This document shows, piece after piece, positions 1,240 through 36,291 of a DNA stretch of 36,291 bases (position 1 is the first letter of the stretch; each line of letters begins with the position of its first letter). The DNA is from a virus. The stretch lies in UHGV virus genome UHGV-0200858; one strand, given 5' to 3'. Under the pieces are notes generated by a model. It was not told the origin of the DNA. It saw nothing but the letters and a program-made list of their open reading frames with translations, and made no database searches. A program made the position numbers and the translations under genes.

Positions 1240-1275
1240 GCCCCTATCGTTATAATACGCGGTAGGGGCTTTTTT
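1240..1275 (+). terminator. rho-independent terminator (approx)
   Basis: GCCCCTATCG ... CGGTAGGGGC stem followed by a T-run, after the 978..1223 gene. Confidence 0.6.
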
Positions 1276-2968
1276 GTTTGGAAATGGTATGAAAACTAAA
1301 CTGTATTCGTATATTCGCTTCTCGTCTATGCGTCAGAATGATGGTTCGAGTTATGAACGACAAATCAGGATGGCTAGAGAGATTGCGGCAAAGTATGACC
1401 TTGAACTGGTAAATGATTATCAGGATCTGGGTGTATCTGCGTTTAAGGGTGCTAACTCTAAAACAGGTGCGCTATCTCGTTTCCTTGATGCAATTGGTAG
1501 ATCCGTTCCTGTTGGTAGCTGGCTATTCATTGAAAACTTGGACCGTTTATCCCGTGCCGATATTGTCAGTGCGCAGGAGTTGTTCCTTTCGATCATTCGT
1601 CGGGGGATCACTATCGTTACGGGTATGGATAACAAGATCTACTCGCTGGATACTGTTACCGCTAACCCGATGGACCTGATGTTCTCCATCCTTCTATTCA
1701 TCCGCGGTAACGAGGAAAGCCAGACTAAGCGCAATCGTACTAACTCAAGCGCATTGATTAAGATTAAAGCTCATCAAGAAAATCCACAAAATCCGGCTGT
1801 TGCAATCGAGGAAGTTGGAAAGAATATGTGGTGGACTGATACCACATCTGGTTATGTGCTTCCTCATCCGGTCTTCTTCCCTATTGTTCAGGAGGTTGTG
1901 GAATTACGGAAGAATGGACGTTCAACCGCCGAAATACTGGATCACCTTAACGAGACATATACACCACCACCAGCGGTTAGTAATAAGAAACATTCAAAAT
2001 GGTCACGGGCAATGGTTGAAAGATTGTTCCATACCCGCGCTTTGATTGGTATCAAGGAAGTCTCGGTAGATGGCGTTAACTATGAGTTAAACAATTATTA
2101 CCCGCGTGTTATTGATGACCCTACGTTCTATCACCTTAAGAAAAATATTGGTGCTAGAGCATGGAACTTCGGAGACAAGGAAGAAGTTAAACCGATCCCC
2201 CTGCTTAGTGGTATTGGCCTATTGAAATGTGATCATTGCGGTTGCGCTATGGTTAAAGTGAAGGGAACGAACAAACGTTCTGACCAGTATCGTTATACAT
2301 GTGATGCGACCCGTTCACGTAGACTTGATTGCGAGCATCCAAACTGGAGTTTTCGAGGTGATCAATTAGAGAAAGCTGTATTGCAATTGCTGGCTGATAA
2401 AATCTGGATTGCTGAGGATAAGGCTAACCCGGTTCCGGCGTTGAAAGTACAGATTGATGAAATATCACGCAAGATTGATAACCTGATCGCCCTTTCTGCT
2501 ATGACAGGAGCAACGAAGGAACTAGCCGATCAGATTACTGCCCTTAATAGCGAGCGTGAAACACTCTACAATCAGATTAAGATGGCAGAAGAGGAAATGT
2601 ATTCTGTAGACTCTCAAGGCTGGGAGAAGCTCGCAGAATTTGATTTAGAAGATGTTTACAATGAGGAACGAATCAAGGTTAGATTCAAGATTAAGCAAGC
2701 TCTAAAGCGGATCGGGTGTAGCAGGATTGACAGAAACAAAAACTTGTTTGTACTGGAATACATCGATGGAAAGACCCAGAGAGTTGTAATAGAAAATTCA
2801 AGAGGAACGAGGAAAGGACAAATATTTGTCGATTTGAAGACTATCAATGATAGGCAGATTCTGGAAAGTAACGGGCTTGTTTTGCATCCATGTTTAGACA
2901 TGCTGACAGATAAAGACTGGAAACCAGAAGAGGAAATACCAGGTCCATTACAGGAATTTGGAATTTAA
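1274..2968 (+). CDS. large serine recombinase (resolvase/invertase N-terminal catalytic domain + recombinase domain + zinc ribbon + coiled coil)
   Basis: N-terminal YSYIRFSSMRQ...R motif typical of serine recombinase catalytic domain; central Cys cluster CDHCGC...C...C (zinc ribbon); C-terminal coiled coil; 564 aa is typical of the large serine recombinase family. Track start is a TTG; first ATG is 15 nt downstream (about 1289). Confidence 0.85.
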   Translation: MFGNGMKTKLYSYIRFSSMRQNDGSSYERQIRMAREIAAKYDLELVNDYQDLGVSAFKGANSKTGALSRFLDAIGRSVPVGSWLFIENLDRLSRADIVSAQELFLSIIRRGITIVTGMDNKIYSLDTVTANPMDLMFSILLFIRGNEESQTKRNRTNSSALIKIKAHQENPQNPAVAIEEVGKNMWWTDTTSGYVLPHPVFFPIVQEVVELRKNGRSTAEILDHLNETYTPPPAVSNKKHSKWSRAMVERLFHTRALIGIKEVSVDGVNYELNNYYPRVIDDPTFYHLKKNIGARAWNFGDKEEVKPIPLLSGIGLLKCDHCGCAMVKVKGTNKRSDQYRYTCDATRSRRLDCEHPNWSFRGDQLEKAVLQLLADKIWIAEDKANPVPALKVQIDEISRKIDNLIALSAMTGATKELADQITALNSERETLYNQIKMAEEEMYSVDSQGWEKLAEFDLEDVYNEERIKVRFKIKQALKRIGCSRIDRNKNLFVLEYIDGKTQRVVIENSRGTRKGQIFVDLKTINDRQILESNGLVLHPCLDMLTDKDWKPEEEIPGPLQEFGI

Positions 2969-3041: not shown

Positions 3042-4226
3042 TTAGGCAGCGTCTAAAGGGCTTAAATCAAGTTCTAGGTCTTCCGGTTCCAAATCAGCTA
3101 ACTGTGCATTCATCCACTTAGCTAAATCTTCATCGGTTACGACAAAATCCGGTTTTTCTTCCCATTCATTAAGATACATCGGACGATCTGGATTTGCTGC
3201 GATATATTCATTAATGAAGTTTAATGCTTTCTTGAGAGTTTTAATCGGGCGTGTTTCCGTCCATCCATCCGGTACATCATGTTTTGAGGCAGTCTTACCC
3301 TTAACATGAATCTTTAACCCTTTCTCTAAGTCGATTGCTTGCCATCCCTTTTCAAACAGATGATTGAATATCAATTCATGTTTGTATGTGGATAATTTGG
3401 CTTGTTGTTGCATTCTCTTTTTAGAGTTGGAGGCGAAACCGATTTTAATAAATTCATCTCCTAATTTCTGAATATAGAGATAAGTCGGACGTGTCTTGTC
3501 AATTCTTCTTAGATTATATTCACCTGTTTCTAATGAACGTTGGTTTGAAAGGCAATCTGGACAAATCAGGATTCCACGGTCGCAAGGTTCACGGGTAGTT
3601 AAATCCCAATCCCCATGATGCGGACAATTACAGCGCAAGAGTGTCTCTCTTACTCCCTTCTCTTCTGACAACCAACAAACGAAGGTGTATCCGAATTCTT
3701 TACACAATTCCTTAATCTGTGCTTCTCTCTTAGCTCTCAATTCAGTGAGCGTATTACATCCGTTTCTACGAGCCAGATTGCTCTCTTTGGTGCAGCATGA
3801 ACAGTTTAAATTTCTACGGAATGCCAGATTAAGAGGGATAGTGAATTCTTCGTTGTGATTCAAGCAGAGAAATTTTGCTTTGGTTCCTTTGACGTGATTG
3901 TATTCACCATCCCAACCTAAAAACTGTTTCCCTTCCTGTTTCCCTCGTTCGGTTAGCTGGATTTTATATCCTTCCTCATTCCTTTTAAGGCTTCCCCCAT
4001 TGATTTGATTTAACTGTTTCAGTGCATGAATGCTGGAAAGTCCGGTAGGTTGATATGACACCTGAAAACGGGCTTCTACTCCTGATACATACGGTAAAAC
4101 AAAACCATCGAAGGTTAATCCGTGTTTCTCACACTGTTTAATGATTCTGGCTTGCACTTCTTCCGGTGTCTTCTGGTTTGGGTGAGTCTTAACAAAAACA
4201 ATCTCGTTTGCAAATGCTAGTTTCAT
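3042..4226 (-). CDS. GIY-YIG-like (T5orf172-type) domain protein with N-terminal Cys/His zinc-ribbon-like repeats; putative homing-endonuclease-like nuclease
   Basis: C-terminal half contains YLYIQKLGDEFIKIGFASNSKKR...E motif resembling GIY-YIG/T5orf172 fold; upstream CxxC/CxC/HH clusters (LNCSCC, RCNCPHHG, CPDC); paralogous to the 4381..4950 product. Confidence 0.55.
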   Translation of the reverse strand: MKLAFANEIVFVKTHPNQKTPEEVQARIIKQCEKHGLTFDGFVLPYVSGVEARFQVSYQPTGLSSIHALKQLNQINGGSLKRNEEGYKIQLTERGKQEGKQFLGWDGEYNHVKGTKAKFLCLNHNEEFTIPLNLAFRRNLNCSCCTKESNLARRNGCNTLTELRAKREAQIKELCKEFGYTFVCWLSEEKGVRETLLRCNCPHHGDWDLTTREPCDRGILICPDCLSNQRSLETGEYNLRRIDKTRPTYLYIQKLGDEFIKIGFASNSKKRMQQQAKLSTYKHELIFNHLFEKGWQAIDLEKGLKIHVKGKTASKHDVPDGWTETRPIKTLKKALNFINEYIAANPDRPMYLNEWEEKPDFVVTDEDLAKWMNAQLADLEPEDLELDLSPLDAA

Positions 4227-4380: not shown

Positions 4381-4950
4381 ATGATTCCAGTAATGGCTAA
4401 AGATATTGTTTTTACTCCTAAATCATCCCGTGCTGTAACTCCACCAGCATTAGAACAACGCATTCTTACTCACATCAAAGATAATGACTTACCGTTAGTC
4501 TTTCATGGCTTTCTGGGTGAGTTTAAAGGGCTTCACACGAGAATTGCTCTTACATGTACTCGCTGCGGTGATAGAGCCGACAAATCAGCTACTAACCTGC
4601 TTAATGAAGGCAAACGCTGTGTATGTTTCAAGAGTGATTATTTTCAATATAAAGCGGGTGTACCATATCTCTATGTGATGCAATCCGGCGATATTGGTAA
4701 ATTTGGTGTAACAAAATCGATTATCAAACGTAGGGTTAATCTGGGCTTACGTAATCCCGGTCATAACTTTGATATTGTCTATGCTCGTGAAATGCCATCA
4801 ATGAAACATGCGCTAGCCACTGAGCGAACAATAAAGAGAATGTTGGATGTGGGTATAGGCGGGATTGAATACGGCAAAACTGAAACATTCCACTACTGCA
4901 ATAAATCACTAAACAATATAAAGAATATTGCAAGTGTGGAGTGGAACTAA
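4381..4950 (+). CDS. GIY-YIG-like (T5orf172-type) domain protein with zinc ribbon (189 aa)
   Basis: CTRCG...CVC Cys cluster followed by YLYVMQSGDIGKFGVTKS...RRVNL...E motif; stop overlaps the start of the downstream helicase gene (TAATG). Confidence 0.55.
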   Translation: MIPVMAKDIVFTPKSSRAVTPPALEQRILTHIKDNDLPLVFHGFLGEFKGLHTRIALTCTRCGDRADKSATNLLNEGKRCVCFKSDYFQYKAGVPYLYVMQSGDIGKFGVTKSIIKRRVNLGLRNPGHNFDIVYAREMPSMKHALATERTIKRMLDVGIGGIEYGKTETFHYCNKSLNNIKNIASVEWN

Positions 4951-6440
4951 TGCAAGATATTAACATTCATTTTCAAGATTACAGTTTCGTTAAGGTTGAA
5001 TGCTCTCCTTCTATCGGAATGGAATTAAGAGATTATTTCTCGTTTGAGGTTGAAGGGGCTAGATTTAGCCCCCGCTACAAATATTCCGGCTGGGATGGAA
5101 AGATAAGACTGTTTACGCATGAGAACACCTTACCAATCGGATTATTGAAAACATTGGGTATCTTCGCTAAAAACATGGGCTATAGCGTATGGGTAGACCC
5201 CAGATTGCTTGAGAAGGAAGATGTAACCAAAGAATCAATTGATTCATGGATTGACTCTTTAGAAGTGTATTCCGGTAGCAATAAAATCAATCCTTACTGG
5301 TATCAAAGAGAGGCAGTATTTCAGGGTATCCATAATCGCCGTAGAATGCTGGTTCTTCCTACCAGTGCCGGAAAGTCATTGATTGCTTGTATGCTGTCTC
5401 GTTGGTACTTAGAGAACTACACCGGAAAGATTCTAATCATTGTCCCGACTACATCGCTGGTGGTTCAAATGAGGGATGATTTTGTCGATTATAGGCTATT
5501 CCCTTATGAAGCAATCCATACAATGATGAGTGGTAGCGGGAAACATCCGGGAGACAGGTTAATCACTGTTTCAACATGGCAATCAGCTTGCAAGATGCCT
5601 CCTGAATGGTTCCGACAATATGGAATGTTGATAGTTGATGAATCGCATCGTGCCAGCGCAAAGAATATCACCAATATCATCAACGGAATGAATCATTGTC
5701 AGTTTAAAATCGGTATGACTGGTTCCCCGAAAGAATCAAAGTGCCATTTAATGCAATATGTCGGGTTGTTCGGTGATATTCAGAAGATAGTAGCAATCAA
5801 GCAATTGATGGATGACGGACAAGTTACCCAGCTTAAAATTAATGCTCTCTTCCTTAAGTACAAAGATGAAGAATGTAAAGCAATGCGGGGCAAAGATTAT
5901 CAGGAAGAGATTAAATTCATCAATGCTCATAAGGTAAGGAATAAACTGGCTTGTAATTTGGCCTTAAAACTCGCCAGGAAGCAAGAAAACGTATTTTTGA
6001 TGTTCCGGTACTCTAAGCATGGAAAAATGCTTTATAATGCGTTACAGCGCGTTTACGATAAGGTTTATTACGTTTCCAGTGAGATTACCACCGCCGAACG
6101 CGATGCCTTAAAGAAAATGGCTGAAAATGAGAAAGGATTGATTGTAGTTGCCTCCTATGGTGTTTTCTCTACTGGCGTTTCAATTAAGAATCTTCATCAT
6201 GTCATTTTCGGTCATCCAGTGAAGGAATCAACCATTGTCCGGCAATCAATAGGACGTGCTCTTAGGAAACATGGTAGTAAAGCAATTGCGTATGTGTGGG
6301 ATTTGATAGATGTGATTTGTTCGAAAGACAAGAAAGGAAAATATACACGCAAGAATTATGCTTTAACTCATGGCCTCCAGAGAATCAATACTTACATATC
6401 AGATCGCTTCGAATATGTAACGAAAACAATCGAGATTTAA
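4941..6440 (+). CDS. uvsW: SF2 DExH-box helicase, UvsW-like
   Basis: Walker A LPTSAGKS, DExH box IVDESH, motifs ILIIVPTT, VYYVSSE, IVVASYGVFSTG, QSIGRALRKHGSK; overall layout and several motifs recall T4 UvsW (from memory, not searched). Track start is GTG; likely ATG start at about 4950 overlapping upstream stop. Confidence 0.8.
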   Translation: MELMQDINIHFQDYSFVKVECSPSIGMELRDYFSFEVEGARFSPRYKYSGWDGKIRLFTHENTLPIGLLKTLGIFAKNMGYSVWVDPRLLEKEDVTKESIDSWIDSLEVYSGSNKINPYWYQREAVFQGIHNRRRMLVLPTSAGKSLIACMLSRWYLENYTGKILIIVPTTSLVVQMRDDFVDYRLFPYEAIHTMMSGSGKHPGDRLITVSTWQSACKMPPEWFRQYGMLIVDESHRASAKNITNIINGMNHCQFKIGMTGSPKESKCHLMQYVGLFGDIQKIVAIKQLMDDGQVTQLKINALFLKYKDEECKAMRGKDYQEEIKFINAHKVRNKLACNLALKLARKQENVFLMFRYSKHGKMLYNALQRVYDKVYYVSSEITTAERDALKKMAENEKGLIVVASYGVFSTGVSIKNLHHVIFGHPVKESTIVRQSIGRALRKHGSKAIAYVWDLIDVICSKDKKGKYTRKNYALTHGLQRINTYISDRFEYVTKTIEI

Positions 6441-17468: not shown

Positions 17469-17475
17469 GAGAATA

Positions 17476-17946
17476 TTAGACTTTCTGGAAAACAGCTTGT
17501 TTAACCGGAGCACCATCTACTACAAAGGTGAAGGTACGGCCTACTACAGCATCCTCACCACCAGTCATGGTAGTTTTAGACAGGAAGCCGTTATAAGCGA
17601 TGTGCACACCAGATTTTTTCGTAGCATCGATGTAGTAAGCAATTTTAAGCTGTACGCGCTTACCGTCTTCGGTTGCTTTAATCAGTTTTTCGTGTACTTC
17701 GTTACCCGGCATGTAGTTGATCGAAAGTTCGATATCCGGTACAGACATACGACCAACCAGCTTACGGTTATAAGCACCAGAGAAGTTAGGAACATCGATA
17801 GTAGAACGTTCTACACCAGTTTCCGGGAACGCTGCGCATTCTGGAATTTCCAGATAAGTTTCAGCGTCAAGATCAACGTTAGCTACATCTTCTTGCAGAA
17901 ACAGACCAACGAGGCCACCAGAGAAAATATCAAATTTAGTAGTCAT
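17476..17946 (-). CDS. major tail tube protein (156 aa)
   Basis: Position directly upstream of G/T chaperones and tape measure; strong SD; followed by strong terminator; codon usage typical of a highly expressed structural gene. Confidence 0.6.
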   Translation of the reverse strand: MTTKFDIFSGGLVGLFLQEDVANVDLDAETYLEIPECAAFPETGVERSTIDVPNFSGAYNRKLVGRMSVPDIELSINYMPGNEVHEKLIKATEDGKRVQLKIAYYIDATKKSGVHIAYNGFLSKTTMTGGEDAVVGRTFTFVVDGAPVKQAVFQKV

Positions 17947-18034
17947 TATTCTTTTCCTTCTATTTTTAAAACAATAGGGTACATGCCCGTAATTCTATTT
18001 ATTTAGTTAAATGGGGGTGTTCCCCCCATTTATA

Positions 18035-27364: not shown

Positions 27365-29269
27365 TTAGAACGATGTTACCCAGCTACGGCCTCTATTTGG
27401 GCGTCTGGCGATGTTTTTACGTTGTGGTCGTGTGATTGGCTTATTTTCTTCGATTTGCTCGTCAGATTGCGATTTAGGAGCTTTTACGGGTTCTTCGACA
27501 ACACGGTTTAAGCTGTCTTTCATTGCGATGAGTTTATCCCATGACATTTTTGAAAGGACGTAGCGAGAAGCCGCTGTAGCATACACGGCGCAGTCGAGCG
27601 CCTCGTTCCTAACGCCTGGGTTCTTTACCCATCTCACGCCAGTAGTAGTACGCTTGACAGATTCACTTAAAAGCTGATCGAGATAATCATCAGGAACGGT
27701 GTCTGATATTTCTAAGCCAATATGAGGATTATCTTTCAGGTTCCTAGCCAACATTTCACGAAATGCAGTTTTACCCACATTAACACCCAACATAAGCAAT
27801 TCATGACCACCTGTGCGGGTAGGTTTAACCGGAATGATCGGAGCGTTACCAGCAGAACTACCTTTGATAGCGTGTAAGTTCTTCCACTTGCCGCAAATAC
27901 GGTATCCAGCTTGAGTGAATCGACCGTTCGATGTATCAAGGAAGCTGGCGAGCATAGGAACACGATCACCCGATACAGTAGTAAATCTGGTTTTATGGAA
28001 GTTGATTAATCTATCCCATACAGGGGATTCATATCGTTCACAGTTATGATCGTAAAAGCTGCGGTGATCCAGAATATAAATCTTATCCTTTGCCACGCCC
28101 ATGATTGTAGTTTCTGCGCGATCTAATTGCTGGTCAGTACCCGCACACAAGAAAATCACGTCATCAGGGATATTCTCGATAGAAACATCTGTTTTGAGTT
28201 GTTCCAGTTCATTTGCTTCTACTGCCGTGTCCTGATCGTCGTATACCTTGCCTAACACGGTGTTATAAAATGATTGTAAATCAAAGGATTGCCACGCATG
28301 ACTAAAATCAACCACACAAGCGCGGATCGTGCTGAAAGGTGAATACAGACGGCTGATCCAGAATCCTGCTACTTCACTTTCACGGGTTGCTCTCCACTCG
28401 CCTTGTGCTACTGCCCTGATCCGCTCTCCTTCTGTCCATGCGTTCTTACAGTGGGGGCAAATATAACGAGCGGTATCAGGATCGGGTAAGTTCTTACCAT
28501 CGATGTTACGCCATTCAAATTGAACGTTTTCCCACTCGATCACCTGGTGTCTACCGCAATGAGGACACGGAACAAAAAACATACGCATATCGCTTGATAA
28601 CCATTGCTGGTTAATGCTTCCCAGCTTACTGGTCGGGGTACTGGATACGACTAATCGACCTTCATCGCCAAAGGTAGTTAAACGGTTAGCAGCCAGTGCC
28701 ACCGGATCACCTTCTTCTGAGGCTGTAGCAGCATCGATTTCGTCAAGCAATCCAACCTTTGCGGTCTTACCACGTAGGGTTGATGGACTGGTAAGCGATA
28801 CCATGTACAGGAAGTGATTCGTTTTTAGCTGTAGCTGGTTATTGTTGTTAACCGCATTGCGATCATTCTTGTCTGTAACCACGTCTTTTAATGCATCACA
28901 TGCTTCGATAGACGGTCGGATCTTACCAGCGAGATATTGAGACATTTCTTTAGCGGTTGATTGTCCGATAATCATATTGCATGGATCGTTAGCCATCTGG
29001 TTAAACAGGATGCCGTTCAGGATGGTAGTCTTTCCGATCTGCGCACTGGTCATCAGAACATACTTTTTCTTGTTCTCAAGGAAAGGAGCATCAATCATGC
29101 CTTTCTGGAATGACAGCAATTTAACTTTATCCCCAGCTTGAGGACCATCTACCAGCACCATATTCGCTTCGCACCATTCCGATGGAAGGAGTTTAGGCGG
29201 TGGCGTAATATATTTTGCGGCATTTCTAAGAATTCTTTTTAGTTTTGTTTTGTTCGAAATTAGTTTCAT
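27365..29269 (-). CDS. terL: terminase large subunit (634 aa)
   Basis: Size, position upstream of portal, N-terminal ATPase-like region (Walker A-like MTSAQIGKT, Walker B-like VGLLDEID) and C-terminal nuclease-like region with conserved acidic residues. Confidence 0.8.
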
Positions 29270-29356
29270 TCAAATACCCTCATTACGAAATATGAAGGTA
29301 TTTATTAAATTGTTGATATTTTGATAAATATGGGTATTAAGATTTAAGGGGGGTGT

Positions 29357-29959
29357 ATGCTAATTAACCAACAACAAAGGGATGAATTAGATTTAGCCTT
29401 ATCTTGTACCGATCATGAATATCGTTTGCCAGTCAAGCATAAGCATTTAAAAACCGACTACACAACATCCGGTTTTAGCCGTGAGGAAGCGAAAGAGATT
29501 TTAATAGAGTTTTACCGCGATAATGGTTATACAGACGTTCACAACTTCTTTAAGAAGCATAGAACATCACATACAGAGTTTCGGAGAGTCCGAGATTGGT
29601 TTGATTTTGATATCAAGCGGTTTTACAGGATTGATGACGGTCCGGTCTATCGGTTGCAATGGAAGCCGATCCGAGAAGTGTTGAAACAGAAGAGATTGAA
29701 TCACGCTGTTACACGCTATCGTAACGAGGCATTCAAGAAAGGCTATGGTGATACAAGGGAATTGTTTGTAGAACTCGCTAACGTGCGTTATAGCCACTAT
29801 TACAACGATCCTAAAGGATTCTTCGAAGTGCTTCGCAAGGTTGATATTAGTCGGGGTACATACTATTCACGGTTGAAGAAGTACGGGATTAAGGCAGAGT
29901 TCTTCATGACCGTTGACGACTCACCGATGTTCAAGATAAAATGTAAGTCCTCTAAATAA
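29357..29959 (+). CDS. hypothetical protein with C-terminal small HTH-like module (200 aa)
   Basis: Divergent from terminase; C-terminus GFFEVLRKVDISRGTYYSRLKKYGIKAEFF resembles the two small paralogs at 29962..30219 and 33429..33623. Confidence 0.45.
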   Translation: MLINQQQRDELDLALSCTDHEYRLPVKHKHLKTDYTTSGFSREEAKEILIEFYRDNGYTDVHNFFKKHRTSHTEFRRVRDWFDFDIKRFYRIDDGPVYRLQWKPIREVLKQKRLNHAVTRYRNEAFKKGYGDTRELFVELANVRYSHYYNDPKGFFEVLRKVDISRGTYYSRLKKYGIKAEFFMTVDDSPMFKIKCKSSK

Positions 29960-29961
29960 TA

Positions 29962-30219
29962 TTGAGAATTCACTATTGTTTGGAGGAAACTACTATGACT
30001 ACTAAAGCTACTCGCGGACGTCCTTGCCGTTTTGATCGTGAACAACTGGCAGCGATTGTAAAAGCGTACTATCAAGCACCGAAAGGTAAAGCCGAAAAAG
30101 AACAAGTATTGAGCGAACACGGTATTTCAATCGCTCAATTCTACAAATCACTCCATAAAGTTGATTTGAAATTCTTTGTTCAGGTTGACGGTGAAATGGT
30201 AGAAGCAACAGGAATTTGA
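29962..30219 (+). CDS. small HTH-like DNA-binding protein (paralog family)
   Basis: RGRPCRFDREQLAAIVKAYY ... GISIAQFYKSLHKV pattern; likely true start at internal ATG about 29995 preceded by GGAGGA; followed by terminator. Confidence 0.45.
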   Translation: MRIHYCLEETTMTTKATRGRPCRFDREQLAAIVKAYYQAPKGKAEKEQVLSEHGISIAQFYKSLHKVDLKFFVQVDGEMVEATGI

Positions 30220-30226
30220 TTCTCTA

Positions 30227-30254
30227 GGCCAATCCTTCGGGGTTGGCTTTTTTT
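30227..30254 (+). terminator. rho-independent terminator (approx)
   Basis: GCCAATCC UUCG GGGUUGGC hairpin with UUCG tetraloop followed by a run of 7 T. Confidence 0.65.
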
Positions 30255-30264
30255 ATACCTACAG

Positions 30265-30293
30265 ATACAAAAAAGCCCCTGAAATTCAGGGGC
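30265..30293 (-). terminator. rho-independent terminator for the minus-strand Rha-like gene (approx)
   Basis: GCCCCTGAA ATT CAGGGGC hairpin; on minus strand followed by TTTTTTG. Confidence 0.55.
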
Positions 30294-30301
30294 AAAAATT
30301 A

Positions 30302-31219
30302 TTACAGTCCGAAGTGTTCCAGTGATCCAGCATTCTGACGAATCAGCAAAGCAGTATTATTGACGATTGCTCGTGAGTTGTTAGGTTGTGGCAATTTCAA
30401 AGTTGCTGCCTTTTCTTCTTCAAGCAATCCGAGTTTTACGAGATGCGGGATAGCATCAGCAGTGAACTCGATCTGACCGTGTGCTGACATACGAGCGAAC
30501 ATATAGCCAGGAGGAAGCAGATCATAACCGTTAGGCTTACCAGAAGCATCCAGACGACGCTCAAGAACACCAGCAGCACATAACCCTTTCAGAATCATTT
30601 GTACCTTCACAGAGCCTCGTTTTTCGCCTAATAAGCGGGTTAAGCTGTGTGTGTCGATAGCTTTACGTACATGCAATTCAACCAGTTGATTCTTTTCCTG
30701 AATCAGTTGTTCGTTTGCAGCTTCCAGTTCCATTGCCTCGCGAATCCAATCGAGCTTAGTCATGTTTGCGTATGGGTTGACTTGCTGAGAACGCAGTTTT
30801 TCATTTTCTTCTTTCAGTCGTTTCCATTCCTGAATAACAACCATTCGACGCTTAACATCGTAACCAGTGACAAGAGTCAGAGTCATTTCTTCGTCTAAGT
30901 GATATACTGGTTCTTTAACAGCATATCCTAAGTTATTGATTCTCTCGACAAATTCAGTTTTGAGCTGATCGATAATACCTAAAGATTCGTACATTTCGCG
31001 AATATCGCGCATTACATTGCTGTGCTTCTTATCGGTGAATTCCGCGATCTGACGGGAAGACATGGTAAGCGGTTTGGTGTTATCAACAACCAGAGACACA
31101 GAAGCAGTTTTAGTAGTCATAGTTTTAACAGTATTCATAGTAAAAATTCCCCTTAAACGGTTTTGCGATTGATACTCCATTTTGATTAACTGTCCACACG
31201 CCAACGGCGCGCGGAACAA
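30302..31219 (-). CDS. rha: Rha-family phage regulatory protein (antirepressor-like)
   Basis: LTMSSRQIAEFTDKKHSNVMRDIREM matches the conserved N-terminal Rha motif; C-terminal region with coiled coil. Track start likely over-extended; probable start at Met about 31138 preceded by AAGGGG. Confidence 0.65.
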   Translation of the reverse strand: MFRAPLACGQLIKMEYQSQNRLRGIFTMNTVKTMTTKTASVSLVVDNTKPLTMSSRQIAEFTDKKHSNVMRDIREMYESLGIIDQLKTEFVERINNLGYAVKEPVYHLDEEMTLTLVTGYDVKRRMVVIQEWKRLKEENEKLRSQQVNPYANMTKLDWIREAMELEAANEQLIQEKNQLVELHVRKAIDTHSLTRLLGEKRGSVKVQMILKGLCAAGVLERRLDASGKPNGYDLLPPGYMFARMSAHGQIEFTADAIPHLVKLGLLEEEKAATLKLPQPNNSRAIVNNTALLIRQNAGSLEHFGL

Positions 31220-31241
31220 TTTTATTTATAATAGAAATTTA

Positions 31242-31574
31242 TTACCAATCGATTTCTACCTGATCTTCTTCATAATAAGGAATCGCATATTCATAACGCC
31301 AGTTTTCGATGATTTCACGTTCTTCATTAGTAAGAAGGTGATTGCTAACTGGAGTCGCATTGTGATTACCAGCTTCGAATTGCTCGCGAACTTCCAGCAT
31401 TGCATGAATACCAGTTAATGACATCAGATCAAACGGAACATGCATACTACGGGAGATAGTTTCACGGGATACGCCCCAATCATTTTCTACATGGCTAGGG
31501 CTTACAGAAACGGTTTTGCCGGAGATTTTAACAGTCCAGTCATACAGGGATTTAGTGATGGTAAATTCTTTCAT
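31242..31574 (-). CDS. hypothetical protein (110 aa)
   Basis: ORF with AGAGGA SD; no recognisable motif. Confidence 0.45.
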   Translation of the reverse strand: MKEFTITKSLYDWTVKISGKTVSVSPSHVENDWGVSRETISRSMHVPFDLMSLTGIHAMLEVREQFEAGNHNATPVSNHLLTNEEREIIENWRYEYAIPYYEEDQVEIDW

Positions 31575-31649
31575 GTTACATCCTCTTTACAAATCTAGGT
31601 CAAATAGGTTCAAAGTTGTCAAGTGCGATAATCATAAAAAAGTCAGAAA

Positions 31650-31685
31650 TATTTGTCAATACCCCTTGACAAGTTGCCAAAGGGT
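31650..31685. promoter_or_regulatory. inverted-repeat operator candidate TTGTCAA-N7-TTGACAA with additional TTGACC copy (approx)
   Basis: ATATTTGTCAATACCCCTTGACAAGTTGCCAAAGGGTTGACC in the gap between two minus-strand early genes. Confidence 0.35.
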
Positions 31686-31693
31686 TGACCTCA

Positions 31694-32203
31694 TTAGAGC
31701 ATTTCTAAGCCATCGTGATAGCCGTAGAAGCCATTCTGAGAAGAGAAACAGATAGGAGCATAATCATCATCTTCGTCGTCTTCATCTTCGTCATAATCGT
31801 TTTTAGGGGCTTCCTGAGCGTCTTCTTTACCGTAGTTAAACATGGCTTCGTCAATCTCTTGAAGGGTTACGAAACTACCCAGATCTTGATCACCGGAACG
31901 GACTTCGAACGGCAGGTCATCACGAACAATAATTGCTGGTAGATTCTGGTATTTCGCACGATCTTGATCGGTGAAGCAGTTAACTACGATAGTAGGTTTC
32001 TTGTTCTTGCAAAACGAATACCAAGCACTAGAAAAGCTGGATTCATCGGAATCAAAAAGGATGTTATAACCACGTTCAACGAAGATCTTCATTAAACGGT
32101 CATTGTGAAAGCTATCTGCATCCAGACCTAACAGGATGAAAGGAGTAGTAGTCTTGTTCTTGTACATAGTTGGTAATCCTCTAAAAGAAAGTGAATCAAA
32201 CAA
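31694..32203 (-). CDS. early protein with acidic C-terminal tail (169 aa)
   Basis: First gene of the leftward unit leaving the control region; C-terminal DYDEDEDDEDDDY acidic run; N-terminal alpha/beta-like region without recognisable catalytic motif. Confidence 0.45.
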   Translation of the reverse strand: MFDSLSFRGLPTMYKNKTTTPFILLGLDADSFHNDRLMKIFVERGYNILFDSDESSFSSAWYSFCKNKKPTIVVNCFTDQDRAKYQNLPAIIVRDDLPFEVRSGDQDLGSFVTLQEIDEAMFNYGKEDAQEAPKNDYDEDEDDEDDDYAPICFSSQNGFYGYHDGLEML

Positions 32204-32753
32204 ATTACACTAGTATTTATAACGAGAATTTTTTATCTATTTGGAAGTGATTGGTATTCAGTCTGGCTAAAGCCATCCTTCATGTACTAGAACAAGAATT
32301 ATACAAAACAAATTTTCTTCTATAATAATATTATATAATAGTTCTTCGTTTTGATTAAATGATCATCAAACCAGTATTGACGCTCTCCAGAGCGTCTGCG
32401 AAGCAATCTATTACCTTCTAGTATTATCAAAGTGATTCTAACTACCTTTCTAGTAACCAGTTAGTAACCACCTAGTATTAAATCCCTTTCTAAGAAAATC
32501 CTTTCAAAAGTGAGTGAACGCCGTAGGCGTGAACGTGAGCGAAGCGAACTATCCAATCCCTTTCGAATCCTGCTTGCAGGTCTTAGAAGGTGTTGGTGGG
32601 CGCTACGCGCACGGCTACGCCGTATTCTTTTTGTGAGATCTTTCTTGAACGCTAGTGAGAGAAAGCGAACAAAAAGGAGAACGTTAGTTCGAGTTTTATA
32701 TTCTATGGTCTGTGTGGTCAAATGCTTTTGCAAATCATACACTTACGTGATTA

Positions 32754-32878
32754 AAGTGTAGGGTTAGTGTAGGTGTGTAGGTTTCATAGTGTAGGTTTGG
32801 ACATGTTCTAGTGTAGGTTTACTGGCTAGTGTAGTGTAGGCCAATCCCTTTCATGTGTAGGTTTGTAGTGTAGGTTTT
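32754..32878 (+). repeat. direct-repeat (iteron-like) array, about 8 copies of GTGTAGG(T)TT
   Basis: Read directly: AGTGTAGGGTT, AGTGTAGGTG, TGTGTAGGTTT, AGTGTAGGTTT, AGTGTAGGTTT, AGTGTAGTGTAGG, TGTGTAGGTTT, AGTGTAGGTTT, all same orientation, spacing 10-20 bp, in non-coding AT-rich region. Confidence 0.8.
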
Positions 32879-32896
32879 TCATCAAAAATTTTGATA
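32878..32896. promoter_or_regulatory. near-palindromic site ATCAAAAATTTTGAT (operator candidate, copy 1)
   Basis: CATCAAAAATTTTGATAAAAA immediately after the iteron array; dyad symmetric. Confidence 0.4.
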
Positions 32897-32959
32897 AAAA
32901 ATTCTTGTATATTATTTAACCAAAAAATCATCAAAAAATAGCTGTAAGTTAATGATTTA

Positions 32960-32993
32960 AAAGGAATTGTCAAAAGGTCACCGTGCTATAATA
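32960..32993 (+). promoter_or_regulatory. extended -10 promoter candidate (TGcTATAAT) (approx)
   Basis: GGAATTGTCAAAAGGTCACCGTGCTATAATAGG: TGnTATAAT extended -10 with upstream TTGTCA-like element. Confidence 0.45.
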
Positions 32994-33029
32994 GGTTATA
33001 AAGGTTGATAATCCTGATCAGCCGTTTTC

Positions 33030-33046
33030 ACACAAAAATTTTGATA
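33030..33046. promoter_or_regulatory. near-palindromic site CAAAAATTTTGATAG (operator candidate, copy 2)
   Basis: Second copy of the AAAAATTTTGATA dyad about 150 bp from copy 1 and about 27 bp upstream of a consensus -35. Confidence 0.4.
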
Positions 33047-33072
33047 GTCATTTCTCGCCTAGATCATGGGTA

Positions 33073-33101
33073 TTGACAATAGTCAAGAACTATTTTATAC
33101 T
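33073..33101 (+). promoter_or_regulatory. near-consensus sigma70 promoter (TTGACA-17-TATACT) driving the rightward early unit
   Basis: TTGACAATAGTCAAGAACTATTTTATACT; the -35 lies within the inverted repeat TTGAC-N4-GTCAA. Confidence 0.6.
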
Positions 33102-33428
33102 TTTTCTCACTGGTGGGGGTTGAAATTTTCAAAACAATCCCCATATAGATGATAGGCAAGAATTTCTCTTGTATAAATACATGCATGAAAATGATTGTTC
33201 ACTTCTGAAATCTCCAGATTCACTGTTAATTCATACAGCACTGGTTAGATATACAGTGCTTTTTCGGTTGAATAATGTACGAATTGATTAATTATTAATC
33301 TTCTCTTTAGCAATTCGTGCTCCCACTGATCGGATATACAGTAGTTTTACAGGGTTTTTCGAAAATCATTTTATAAATAGATATGTCGAGAGCGAAAAGC
33401 TCTTTTTAAAGTTTTCATTATTCCACAA

Positions 33429-33623
33429 TTGAGGATTCTACTTATGGCTAGACCTGTTAAATTTACCCGTGAAATGATTGTTGATATTGCTAAACGCTTT
33501 TATGGTGACACTGAACGAGGCGGTGAGAACTTCTTTAAGAAGGAAGGAATTGATAGAAGCGGATTCTACAAACTAATGAAGAAATACGAGATTCAAGTAA
33601 AGATTAACGTTCAAGTTTGTTAA
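33429..33623 (+). CDS. small HTH-like DNA-binding protein (64 aa), paralog of 29962..30219
   Basis: ARPVKFTREMIVDIAKRFY ... GIDRSGFYKLMKKYEIQV pattern shared with the other two small modules; AGGA SD. Confidence 0.45.
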   Translation: MRILLMARPVKFTREMIVDIAKRFYGDTERGGENFFKKEGIDRSGFYKLMKKYEIQVKINVQVC

Positions 33624-33661
33624 TCACCTTTCACTGAGAATTATATGATGGCTTTAAAAAT

Positions 33662-33696
33662 AAAAAAGCCTCCCTGTTGGCGCAAGGAGGCTTTTA
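33662..33696 (+). terminator. hairpin terminator/attenuator immediately upstream of the 33742 gene (approx)
   Basis: GCCTCC CTGTTGGCGCAA GGAGGC followed by TTTT; A-run on the 5' side. Confidence 0.4.
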
Positions 33697-33741
33697 GCAT
33701 GAAACATTAAAAACAAACACAGAGCATTCAGGAGTATTTAT

Positions 33742-34773
33742 ATGAAAAATTCTAAGCGCATCACCTTCAACCTGTTCATCAAAGCAAACGGCAAACTGAA
33801 CATTACTGTCATGGAAGGTAAAGCAAGCAAACAAGACAAATCCTTTGAAGTAGTATCCGGTAAGACTCTGACCGAAATGCGTCAGAATGCTGGCATCAAA
33901 GACGGTGCTGAATGGCAGATCACTAACCGTTTCGACAAACGTCACGTTAAACCTACACTGGTAGAAGGTGAATCCGTTTATTGCTTCGCTCGTGCTGTTA
34001 AAGCTGATGAGACTTACTATCTCGCTGTTGTTAAAACTGCTTCCGGCTTCCGTGCTGTAATGCACCACAAGAGCAAGCGTAACGAATACGGTGTAGAGAC
34101 CCAGGAAGTTGCAAAACGCTTCCGTACTGTTGCTACTGAATCCACTGTAAAAGATGTTTCTGGTACTGTTAACACCGCTAAAGGTGGTTCTTTCTACAAC
34201 CACGCATTACAGGTTACTTCCTCCTTCTTCTGCAAAAAAGAAGCTGTGAAAGAAGTTGCTCCGGTAGTAGTTGAAGAAGTTAAAGAAGAAGTTGCAGTGG
34301 TTGAATCTTCCGAAGTTGAAGCACTGAAAGCACGAATCGCTGAACTGGAAGCTGAAATGACAGCAGTTAAAGCAGAAAACGCATCTCTGAAAGCAGAACT
34401 GGCAGCACAGGAAACTACTTTCGAAGTAGCAGCGGTTGAAGTTGAAGCAGTTGAAGAAAAATCCATTGATGAAGAACTGGAAGAACTCCTTAACTATCGC
34501 TGGGGTAACGGTGAAGTAGAAGAAGAACAGGAAAACGAGAAAGAAGCTGATCCGGTAGTAGTTCCGGTTGAAGTTGAAGCAGAATCCGCACCAGTTACTA
34601 ACTTTGAATCCCTGCGCAATAACTTTATGGCTAAATTCAAAACCACTTGGGAAGATACCGAAGAAGAACAAGAAGAGATTGAAGTAAACGAAGACGAGAT
34701 CCGCGAAGCACAGATGGCACTGCATGACGCTATCTATGACACCAACTACAGCGCCTACGCATACGCAGCTTAA
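33742..34773 (+). CDS. highly acidic early protein with N-terminal globular domain and C-terminal E/V/A-rich coiled coil (343 aa)
   Basis: Strong SD (AGGAG), codon usage strongly biased to major E. coli-type codons (CTG, AAA, GAA, GTT, CGT), C-terminal half dominated by E/A/V repeats (EVEAVEEK, VVPVEVEAE); candidate host-takeover/anti-defence protein. Confidence 0.55.
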   Translation: MKNSKRITFNLFIKANGKLNITVMEGKASKQDKSFEVVSGKTLTEMRQNAGIKDGAEWQITNRFDKRHVKPTLVEGESVYCFARAVKADETYYLAVVKTASGFRAVMHHKSKRNEYGVETQEVAKRFRTVATESTVKDVSGTVNTAKGGSFYNHALQVTSSFFCKKEAVKEVAPVVVEEVKEEVAVVESSEVEALKARIAELEAEMTAVKAENASLKAELAAQETTFEVAAVEVEAVEEKSIDEELEELLNYRWGNGEVEEEQENEKEADPVVVPVEVEAESAPVTNFESLRNNFMAKFKTTWEDTEEEQEEIEVNEDEIREAQMALHDAIYDTNYSAYAYAA

Positions 34774-34788
34774 TAGAGGGGTGAATCT

Positions 34789-35031
34789 ATGATGAATCAA
34801 AACAAAGAATTTCTGGGTAATCTGATGTTAGAAATTACCAAAATTAAAGAAAGAATGGTAGCGATGGAATCAGAGATTAAAACTCTTAAAGCTGATAATA
34901 AGGCGTTGAGAAAGTCCTTAAAGCTGATTGATGAGACTAATGCGGTTATGATGGATCATGTATTCCCTGAGTGGCGAAATGAAACTAAACCTACACAACA
35001 CAAGAAACCTACACTTCGGATTGTTGCATAA
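34789..35031 (+). CDS. small coiled-coil protein (80 aa)
   Basis: GGGGTGA SD; heptad-like region EITKIKERMVAMESEIKTLKADNKALRKSLKLIDE; followed by hairpin. Confidence 0.45.
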   Translation: MMNQNKEFLGNLMLEITKIKERMVAMESEIKTLKADNKALRKSLKLIDETNAVMMDHVFPEWRNETKPTQHKKPTLRIVA

Positions 35032-35730: not shown

Positions 35731-36291
35731 TTAGGACACATCGAATTCATCATCTTCTTCGGATTCTTCTTGTTCTTCCGGTTCATCCATTAACGGTAAT
35801 TCTTCTTCGTCCTCGTCTTCACCTAATTCTGCATTTTCGAACATATCCCCTACTTCATTTAAACGACGCTCGATGATCTCCCTTAGCTTATTCTTCAACG
35901 TTTTCTGATCGGTTGCAGATTCGAGAATTTCTAAAGCATCGATTGTGGCGATCTGCAAAATAGTCTGCTTCACTTTCCCGCAGTATTCCGCTAGTTCCTG
36001 TTCTACATACCCTACTGGAATAAGTTGGTTCATCGCTTCCTGGTTCTCGCGTTCGGCAGCATCTGCTAAAGCACGTTCACGGCGTAATTTCTCGACATCG
36101 ATTTGTTCCTTAATAGAAGTTTCTTTGAGCGGGTTAATGATATTTTTCAAGACCCATTCTGTACCCTCTTTTGCTGGTACGCGTCGTGTATTGGTATTAA
36201 ATGGCATTCCTCGTTGCTGCCATTTCTTAGCTGCGTTGATTGTATAGCCGTATAAGCGGGAAATTTCTGTAAGGGTTAATTCTTCTTTCAT
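35731..36291 (-). CDS. Nu1-like winged-HTH DNA-binding protein, putative terminase small subunit (186 aa)
   Basis: N-terminal LTLTEISRLYGYTINAAKKWQQRGMP resembles the lambda Nu1 HTH (QNWQEQGMP), followed by EKLRRE coiled coil and acidic C-terminus; the window ends exactly at the start codon. Confidence 0.5.
   Translation of the reverse strand: MKEELTLTEISRLYGYTINAAKKWQQRGMPFNTNTRRVPAKEGTEWVLKNIINPLKETSIKEQIDVEKLRRERALADAAERENQEAMNQLIPVGYVEQELAEYCGKVKQTILQIATIDALEILESATDQKTLKNKLREIIERRLNEVGDMFENAELGEDEDEEELPLMDEPEEQEESEEDDEFDVS

Follow-up and report, generated by a model that had tools for sequence, protein, structure and literature searches.

A recurrent small helix-turn-helix-like module in the control region of an enterobacterial prophage and the iteron cassette beside it

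The virus genome UHGV-0200858, a DNA stretch of 36,291 nucleotides that was analysed over its full length and is called the window below, is an enterobacterial prophage of 36 kb. Its control region encodes three small proteins, here named p200, p74 and p59, and contains an array of iterons and a dyad. To which class do these proteins belong, and on which DNA could they act? An earlier note on this sequence had read them as three copies of a helix-turn-helix (HTH)-like module that form a paralogous DNA-binding family, with the iterons or dyads as candidate sites. For comparison, related loci were gathered from E. coli, Salmonella and Proteus, with assemblies and IMG/VR as sources.

Module copies, their genes and their fold

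The pattern shared by the three proteins, first seen in predicted proteins of 64, 85 and 200 amino acids, is present in these genes far beyond chance. Instead of the three copies originally counted, four were found in the three proteins, with two in tandem in p200. The R(P) at the head of the pattern occurs in p74 (RGRPCRF) and p59 (MARPVKF) and is missing from both p200 modules. The size of 200 amino acids was correct for p200, whereas the proteins read as 85 and 64 amino acids have true lengths of 74 and 59.

BLASTP comparison of the 64-amino-acid open reading frame (ORF) with the 200-amino-acid protein aligned both halves of the latter (E = 3e-5 for the C-terminal module and 6e-4), and the same was true for the 85-amino-acid ORF (E = 6e-5 for the C-terminal module and 0.008). 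Because two parts of p200 are aligned in this way, the protein holds two copies. The 64- and 85-amino-acid ORFs compared directly gave no significant match (E = 0.62). In leave-one-out searches with hidden Markov models against all 542 six-frame ORFs of the window, the omitted copy was the best non-training match every time, with E values of 8e-7 for p74, 5e-7 for p59 and about 1e-3 for each half of p200. Profiles of the p74 family only or the p59 family only were searched against 2412 six-frame ORFs from the window and seven related loci. They recovered the other two families with E values from 7.5e-12 to 0.07, mostly between 1e-5 and 1e-12, and nothing else below E = 2; the weak cases were p59 of locus L005 (E = 0.07) and of locus L002 (E = 2e-3) under the p74-only profile. 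A profile made from the window's own p200 halves detected two domains in every p200 orthologue. No extra module copy was found in the window, where the best candidate was an antisense ORF at 17470-18003 (E = 0.011, domain E about 1). The homology is thus significant by BLASTP, by leave-one-out models and by single-family profiles, and paralogy, which the earlier note would have given up if the alignment had shown no significant similarity, is upheld. Judged from its sequence, p200 is an internal tandem duplication, and it is possible that its two modules pack intramolecularly as a covalent pseudo-dimer.

The ORFs of 85 and 64 amino acids that had been delimited mechanically are too long, because the lengths of the orthologues and the RefSeq annotation agree on shorter genes. 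The ATG start of p74 has a GGAGGA Shine-Dalgarno sequence 8 nt upstream, the orthologues have 72-75 amino acids, and the RefSeq coding sequence has 74. The ratio of nonsynonymous to synonymous substitution rates (dN/dS) is 0.05-0.39 for the three module genes wherever dS is unsaturated (0.12-0.24 for p200, 0.09-0.23 for p59), and p200, p74 and p59 are therefore all real genes. The 31 orthologues of p200 (43-89% identity), found in E. coli, Salmonella and Proteus, are all annotated as hypothetical.

AlphaFold2 models calculated with family alignments predict a helix followed by a helix-turn-helix and a two-stranded beta-hairpin for p74 and for both halves of p200. The predicted helices lie at residues 42-56, 61-67 and 72-82 in the N-terminal module of p200 (strands 86-92 and 97-99), at 134-147, 152-161 and 166-175 in its C-terminal module (strand 180-186), and at 15-27, 32-41 and 46-55 in p74 (strands 61-64 and 67-70). 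The mean predicted local distance difference test score was 75.5 for p200, with a predicted template modelling score of 0.69, and 74.6 for p74. All module copies are basic (isoelectric points 9.1-9.6). An R-P-x-(K/R)-F arm ahead of helix 1 is near-invariant in the alignment of p74 and p59, and helix 3 of p74 is almost invariant among orthologues.

Searches of Pfam, PHROG, NCBIfam, PADLOC and PDB sequences assigned the modules to no family at threshold; the families recurring below threshold were HTH_Tnp_1, HTH_7 and UPF0175. HTH_Tnp_1 was the best sub-threshold Pfam family (E = 0.017-0.18, 9 of 40 members), with p74 reaching 12.5-13 bits (E = 0.12-0.18) against a gathering threshold of 24.1 bits. 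HTH_7, whose gathering threshold of 23.8 bits was likewise unmet, gave sub-threshold matches in 5 of the 40 family members (best E = 0.035) and none for the three window proteins at E up to 1. Foldseek against viral models returned nothing below E = 0.06, the value of the top match, which is a transposase. The modules matched neither HTH_3/XRE nor ribbon-helix-helix families, and the models show three helices and a hairpin, where Cro/CI-type regulators have a five-helix fold. The N-terminal domain of TetR, which the GRPxxFxRE...GIS...Y consensus first brought to mind and which is likewise a three-helix HTH (TetR_N, PF00440), was rejected: no member of the 40 matched TetR_N at E up to 1, the fold matches were weaker than those to transposase-type HTHs, and proteins of 59-74 amino acids or two modules have no ligand-binding helical domain.

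A search of 1.84 billion representative proteins with the module profile yielded just 26 matches. They comprise the three module families with their fragments, two single-module outliers (P0087 and P0104) and, for the rest, arrays that have 4-7 units such as "...FCKEKGISKTTYYHYLKELHIDIK" in tandem and reach the Pfam thresholds of HTH_7, HTH_23, HTH_28 or HTH_Tnp_1. Among the arrays, P0083, P0084, P0086, P0088 and P0089 matched the module profile with E values of 1.7e-12 to 2.6e-7 in this search and pass Pfam thresholds. The array proteins P0083, P0084, P0086, P0088, P0089, P0091 and P0102 have 258-981 amino acids with 4-7 or more tandem HTH units, each of which ends in ...Y..LKK(Y/L)(G/N)I.

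On sequence grounds the modules appear to be remote relatives of the HTH group of Hin/resolvase and of IS3/IS630 transposases. With the C-terminal HTH of Hin and gamma-delta resolvase (HTH_7, PF02796) they share a length of about 50 residues, three helices as far as the models predict, a G-I-S turn, an aromatic/basic helix 3 and, in p74 and p59, a basic arm of the G-R-P type before helix 1; moreover, their remote relatives pass HTH_7. The GRPR arm of Hin contacts the minor groove, and the arm of p74 and p59 resembles it. Unlike the Hin/resolvase domain, the modules stand alone without a recombinase catalytic domain, have an added C-terminal beta-hairpin and remain below the Pfam threshold, and the p200 copies have lost the arm. 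Likeness to the HTHs of IS3-family OrfA, IS630/Tc1, CENP-B, Pipsqueak and Brinker (HTH_Tnp_1, HTH_23, HTH_28, CENP-B_N) lies in the HTH_Tnp_1 scores and the transposase fold match mentioned above, but the modules lack a transposase partner or domain, score weakly and are narrowly distributed. The spread of the family, one prophage lineage and a few outliers, marks it by sequence comparison as lineage-restricted and previously unnamed, new but narrow within the very large HTH class. Homology, the predicted HTH fold, the basic isoelectric points and the HTH relatives in Pfam all support the proposed paralogous family, while DNA binding itself we infer from the fold class.

Two units and their candidate targets

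Taken together, we lean slightly towards reading the modules as sequence-specific DNA-binding regulators that act in two units by ordinary transcriptional regulation. That the modules bind DNA as such is probable from the predicted fold, and they may do so as dimers; the particular targets proposed here are tentative. In the first unit, p200 and/or p74 would bind the conserved 87-bp divergent spacer between p200 and the large terminase gene (TerL) and control the late operon as well as their own transcription, as activator or repressor. In the second unit, p59 would be a small transcriptional (auto)regulator of its own cassette, by analogy with Cro or CopG-type proteins ahead of replication genes.

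The strong convergent terminators behind p74 and the Rha-family gene isolate p200-p74 as its own transcription unit. The spacer in front of p200 is nearly invariant in about 38 loci, and the flanking TerL and p200 diverge to 45-67% identity. A pattern scan of the 87 bp found no sigma-70-like leftward promoter. As RNA, the dyad of the spacer is predicted to form a 13-bp hairpin over the Shine-Dalgarno sequence of TerL (-13.8 kcal/mol, z = -3.6). In the two loci without p74 (L004 and L047) about 18 bp with one TATTT-type element are missing from the spacer and the right dyad arm is degenerate; this arm is degenerate in the Proteus locus too. The spacer differences in the loci lacking p74 are a weak lead, with n = 2 and with a partial deletion in one p74-containing locus. 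As a functional analogy only, p200 and p74 recall the late activators Mor and C of phage Mu, which are small basic HTH proteins by a late operon lacking a recognisable sigma-70 promoter; unlike these, they show no Mor-family match and consist of tandem modules with hairpins.

In the second unit p59 is the first gene of a cassette in the order iterons, promoter, leader hairpin, p59, terminator, p343, p80, and starts about 560 bp downstream of the iterons. The hairpin with T-run just ahead of its ribosome-binding site is retained in all loci, with the stems changed in a compensatory manner, and the upstream linker of p59 also carries a ATTAATCCACA box. The leader may serve attenuation or antitermination control. 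A conserved 21-codon mini-ORF (MMALKIKKPPCWRKEAFSMKH, about 33645-33710) overlaps the terminator hairpin between p59 and p343; this spacer with its mini-ORF could function as a leader peptide or as a linker for recombination. Like Cro and CII of lambda before O-P and the CopG repressors before plasmid rep genes, p59 has about 60 amino acids, comes first in the operon, is followed by an iteron-matched protein and has a strong sigma-70-like promoter upstream and a terminator before the next gene. This analogy is one of function only, and unlike those proteins p59 has no sequence or family relation to them (no HTH_3 or ribbon-helix-helix match). Types of p59, types of leader and iteron/p343 classes reassort with one another, as is typical of mosaic exchange at linkers.

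Rather improbable, but the best of the rivals, is a role of the modules as protein-interaction or RNA-binding domains, for example as read-through factors at the hairpin/T-run elements. The conserved terminator-like hairpins that bracket p59 (33388-33407 and 33664-33695) would suit it, as would the weak fold matches and the fact that no operator could be tied to any module by co-variation. DNA-binding HTH units typically show, however, a G-I-(S/D) turn, an aromatic-basic helix 3 and an R-P arm like those of the modules; the thresholds of DNA-binding HTH families are passed by the nearest relatives in sequence, and all modules are basic.

Somewhat less likely still, p200 and p74 could be packaging accessory proteins that recognise a cos or pac site in the spacer, like the N-terminal HTH of small terminases. 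In every locus p200 directly adjoins TerL, the spacer is unusually conserved, no gene for a small subunit lies beside TerL, and the remote HTH relatives also match the Sf6_terminase, Terminase_5 and Phage_terminase models. However, p200 is divergent from TerL instead of preceding it in one operon, the window encodes a Nu1-like small subunit at another place, none of the three module proteins matches a terminase family in Pfam or PHROG, and the related p59 lies in another cassette and also in a T4-like phage that packages by headful.

The known directionality factors of serine integrases are small, basic and fast-evolving and share no common family. That at least one of the small modules is such a factor for the serine integrase of the window is improbable: although the module resembles the HTH carried by serine recombinases themselves, all relatives share the ycdX site and p74 is highly conserved, the module genes lie 26-31 kb from the integrase gene, the loci L004 and L047 keep the same insertion site without p74, and a p59 relative is encoded by a lytic T4-like genome that has no integrase in its vicinity.

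Several points weigh against the regulator reading itself. DNA binding is deduced from the class of the fold and from nothing else. An hhalign comparison of the module alignment with the array units gave 97.5% probability (E = 7e-12) over 56 columns that extend from the arm to beyond helix 3, but the units had been chosen with the same profile; this partly circular result lends support without being independent evidence. Helix 3 of the p200 modules in the window differs from that in L002 and L004 while the spacer DNA is almost the same, a misfit to a simple picture of one helix and one site. Conservation of the spacer and the linkers could reflect a function as RNA elements, or as junctions for recombination in a mosaic genome, instead of protein sites; the dyad of the spacer is predicted to fold, as RNA, into a hairpin over the terminase ribosome-binding site. 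Finally, a search by co-variation tied no operator to p59, because p59 type, leader type and iteron class reassort and the p59 type does so freely with the 400 bp upstream.

Iterons, p343 and the cassette in T4-like phages

The iteron array has the same position in all related loci, and the sequence of its repeat differs. Five classes were distinguished, each with its own N-terminus of p343: class A with the core AGTGTAGG (MKNSKRITFN), class B with TTCAGGGGCAAAA (MLFSANFFTN), class C with TTCACGGACAAAA (MLFTANIFTN), class D with GCTAGGGAT (MNNTKFTINV) and class E with ACGGGGAC (MKQNNFSITV). The iteron class equals the class of the p343 N-terminal domain in all 35 loci where both are readable. 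The identity of p343 proteins is 64-99% inside an iteron class and 30% or less across classes; the N-terminal domains fall into two unrelated superclasses, and the coiled coil is common to all. Searches of Pfam, PHROG, NCBIfam and PADLOC assigned p343 to no known family, with LmuB matches confined to the coiled coil.

The small module proteins behave differently. The same p59 protein occurs beside AGTGTAGG iterons (class A, locus L017) and beside AGGGGCAA iterons (class B, locus L018), beta-type p59 proteins that are 82-87% identical and agree in helix 3 are found with classes B, C, D and E, and p74 proteins of 100% identity accompany classes A, B and E. The modules are thus not iteron-specific binders, and this part of the earlier proposal is not supported. 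They may instead bind conserved dyads or other sites that are conserved. That they act on the array as initiator or copy-control proteins at an origin is the least likely of the rivals and highly improbable, even though p59 belongs to the same cassette and AGTGTAGG iterons are the sole partners of its alpha type (helix 3 DRSGFYKLMKKY), which the window shares with 11 related loci.

Judged by this co-variation, the N-terminal domain of p343 is a strong candidate for the reader of the iterons and would carry the iteron specificity; p343 is perhaps an origin-binding initiator. Directly past the iterons, positions 32880-33070 are very AT-rich and contain two copies of AAAAATTTTGATA, the layout expected for an unwinding region at an iteron origin. 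A further motif, (C/A)AATCC(C)TTTC, was observed on the plus strand at 32481, 32497, 32555 and 32843 and is kept in loci of different iteron classes; L001-L003 have one additional, inverted copy some 110 bp ahead of the small-terminase-like gene (L001 15145, minus strand). The motif is a candidate site of some conserved DNA-binding protein.

P0087, a p59 relative of 64 amino acids with 44% identity (MARPVKFTRE...), is encoded in a 168-kb contig of a T4-like phage, and the same arrangement was found in an independent assembly, which makes two independent samples (L008 4894-6625 and L009 1-1338). The cassette is flanked by homologues of T4 genes 3 and 2; T4 itself has 106 bp between these two genes. 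Upstream of P0087 lie about 560 bp of non-coding DNA with at least 8 (A/T)(G/T)CGATTA(C) repeats, a TTGACA promoter and a hairpin with T-run. P0087 is followed by a protein of 204 amino acids, the N-terminal domain of which is 32-38% identical to class A and D p343 (E = 1e-8 to 1e-15), and an 80-amino-acid coiled-coil protein, the counterpart of p80, closes the cassette. P0104, a further p59 relative on another contig, precedes a 180-amino-acid protein with a coiled coil. Without exception among the loci, a p343-type protein follows a gene of the p59 type, and it does so in the T4-like phage and in this one further contig too.

These arrangements suggest, from gene content and order, that the cassette is a portable unit moving between temperate enterobacterial prophages and T4-like phages. 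The role of iterons in phages of the T4 type is called unresolved in a review (PMC3016281). The oriE proteins RepEA and RepEB of T4 were considered as relatives of p59 and p343 and rejected; they show no similarity, have 45-50 amino acids and are encoded antisense within gene 5. It is conceivable, though we regard it as unlikely, that the cassette is a self-contained mobile replication-origin or DNA-tethering module of an undescribed kind, which swaps its DNA-recognition parts at the linkers and the HTH component of which was duplicated into the p200-p74 switch at the late operon.

The prophage and its gene order

The chromosome of E. coli FDAARGOS_1267 (NZ_CP069522) contains a copy 96.8% identical to the window, inserted in ycdX and adjoining ghrA. 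The region is matched in 58 of 5426 complete E. coli genomes (about 1%), always on the chromosome, and the prophages of E. coli, Salmonella and Proteus have an invariant gene order and are all integrated at ycdX. In the left part this order is TerL (minus strand), p200 and p74 (plus strand) and variable leftward genes including one for a Rha-family protein; in the right part it is a gene for a protein of 150-169 amino acids (minus strand), the iteron region, p59, p343 and p80 (plus strand), further genes, the small-terminase-like gene (minus strand) and the attachment site. Only L004 and L047 are without p74. A leftward structural operon of about 22 kb begins with TerL, which is divergent from p200. 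The small-terminase-like (TerS-like) gene lies 6.5 kb from TerL in a different operon; the window stops exactly at its ATG, and about 365 bp of prophage DNA beyond it (L001 15036-15400) are outside the window. Near the left end, at 3042-4226 (minus strand), 4381-4950 and 4941-6440 (both plus strand), a divergent pair of CapR-homology-domain genes and the gene of the UvsW-like helicase adjoin each other; they may form the switch for immunity and the operon for early replication in this prophage. The coordinates of the features are compiled in the table.

Table 1. Coordinates of features in the window
Feature	Position	Strand	Remarks
Large serine recombinase/integrase	1274-2968		Sole recombinase of the window; gene separate from the modules
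UvsW-like helicase			Encoded in the window, with two CapR-homology-domain proteins
TerL, lambda GpA type	27365..29269	-	GpA_ATPase and GpA_nuclease in orthologues; tblastn matches to phage large terminases
TerL-p200 spacer, 87 bp	29270..29356		Dyad and repeated TATTT(A/T)(T/G)ATAAAT elements
Dyad AAATACCCTCAT-8-ATGAAGGTATTT	29272-29303		12-bp arms; overlaps TerL ribosome-binding site
p200, 200 amino acids	29357..29959	+	N-terminal helix, then two tandem modules
p200 N-terminal module, residues 38-100	29468..29656	+	No R-P arm; matched by p59-only and p74-only profiles in orthologues
p200 C-terminal module, residues 127-194	29735..29938	+	No R-P arm; the copy noticed in the earlier note
p74	29995..30219	+	Single module, RGRPCRF arm; start ATG 29995, not TTG 29962
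Intrinsic terminator after p74	30226-30249	+	Terminator scan, sequence; convergent with the next
Intrinsic terminator after Rha-family gene	30293-30275	-	Terminator scan, sequence
AATCCCTTTC repeats	32480-32565		Non-coding region upstream of iterons
Iteron array	32754..32880	+	8 same-strand copies of (TA)GTGTAGG(TTT); within 1.24 kb of non-coding DNA, 32204-33443
Sigma-70-like promoter, strong	33073-33101	+	TTGACA-17-TATACT; then leader of about 340 nt
Leader hairpin GGGGG...CCCC	about 33115-33142
Terminator-like leader hairpin	33238-33263
Hairpin and T-run GAGAGCGAAAAGCTCTTTTT	33388..33407	+	Just ahead of p59 ribosome-binding site
p59	33444..33623	+	Single module, MARPVKF arm; start ATG 33444; orthologues 59-61 amino acids; RefSeq coding sequence 59 amino acids
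p59-p343 linker, 118 bp	33624-33741		Conserved in all iteron classes up to the p343 start codon
Terminator hairpin, conserved	33664..33695		Between p59 and p343
p343, 343 amino acids	33742..34773	+	Variable N-terminal domain, coiled coil, acidic stretch, conserved C-terminal tail HD.(I/M)YGT
p80	34789..35031	+	Leucine-zipper-like coiled-coil protein; last cassette gene; only coiled-coil Pfam matches
Nu1-like small terminase (TerS-like)	35731-36291	-	phrog_57, E = 6.8e-16; right end of the window

Among the phages in GenBank no sequenced phage matches the region, and these phages together with the PLSDB plasmids gave no DNA or protein match for the region, p200, p59, p343 or the proteins of the T4-like cassette. 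Scans of metagenomes and IMG/VR revealed nothing beyond the same prophage family, the GTDB species representatives contained no relative of p59, and an Rfam scan of positions 29200-33800 gave no match near threshold. Literature on a ycdX prophage was sought as well, and only unrelated papers were found.

The direct gain from the module family is small, since it is narrow and since small HTH regulators in the control region of a phage are no surprise. Names and testable roles are gained for three genes listed as "hypothetical" in a group of prophages that about 1% of complete E. coli genomes carry. The natural reassortment in 35 relatives provides a clean genetic argument for p343 as the reader of the iterons and redirects binding experiments to this protein. 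More unusual than the modules is the portable iteron cassette with its modular, unclassified iteron-matched protein, and the same cassette in a T4-like phage suggests a portable iteron module common to temperate and virulent phages.

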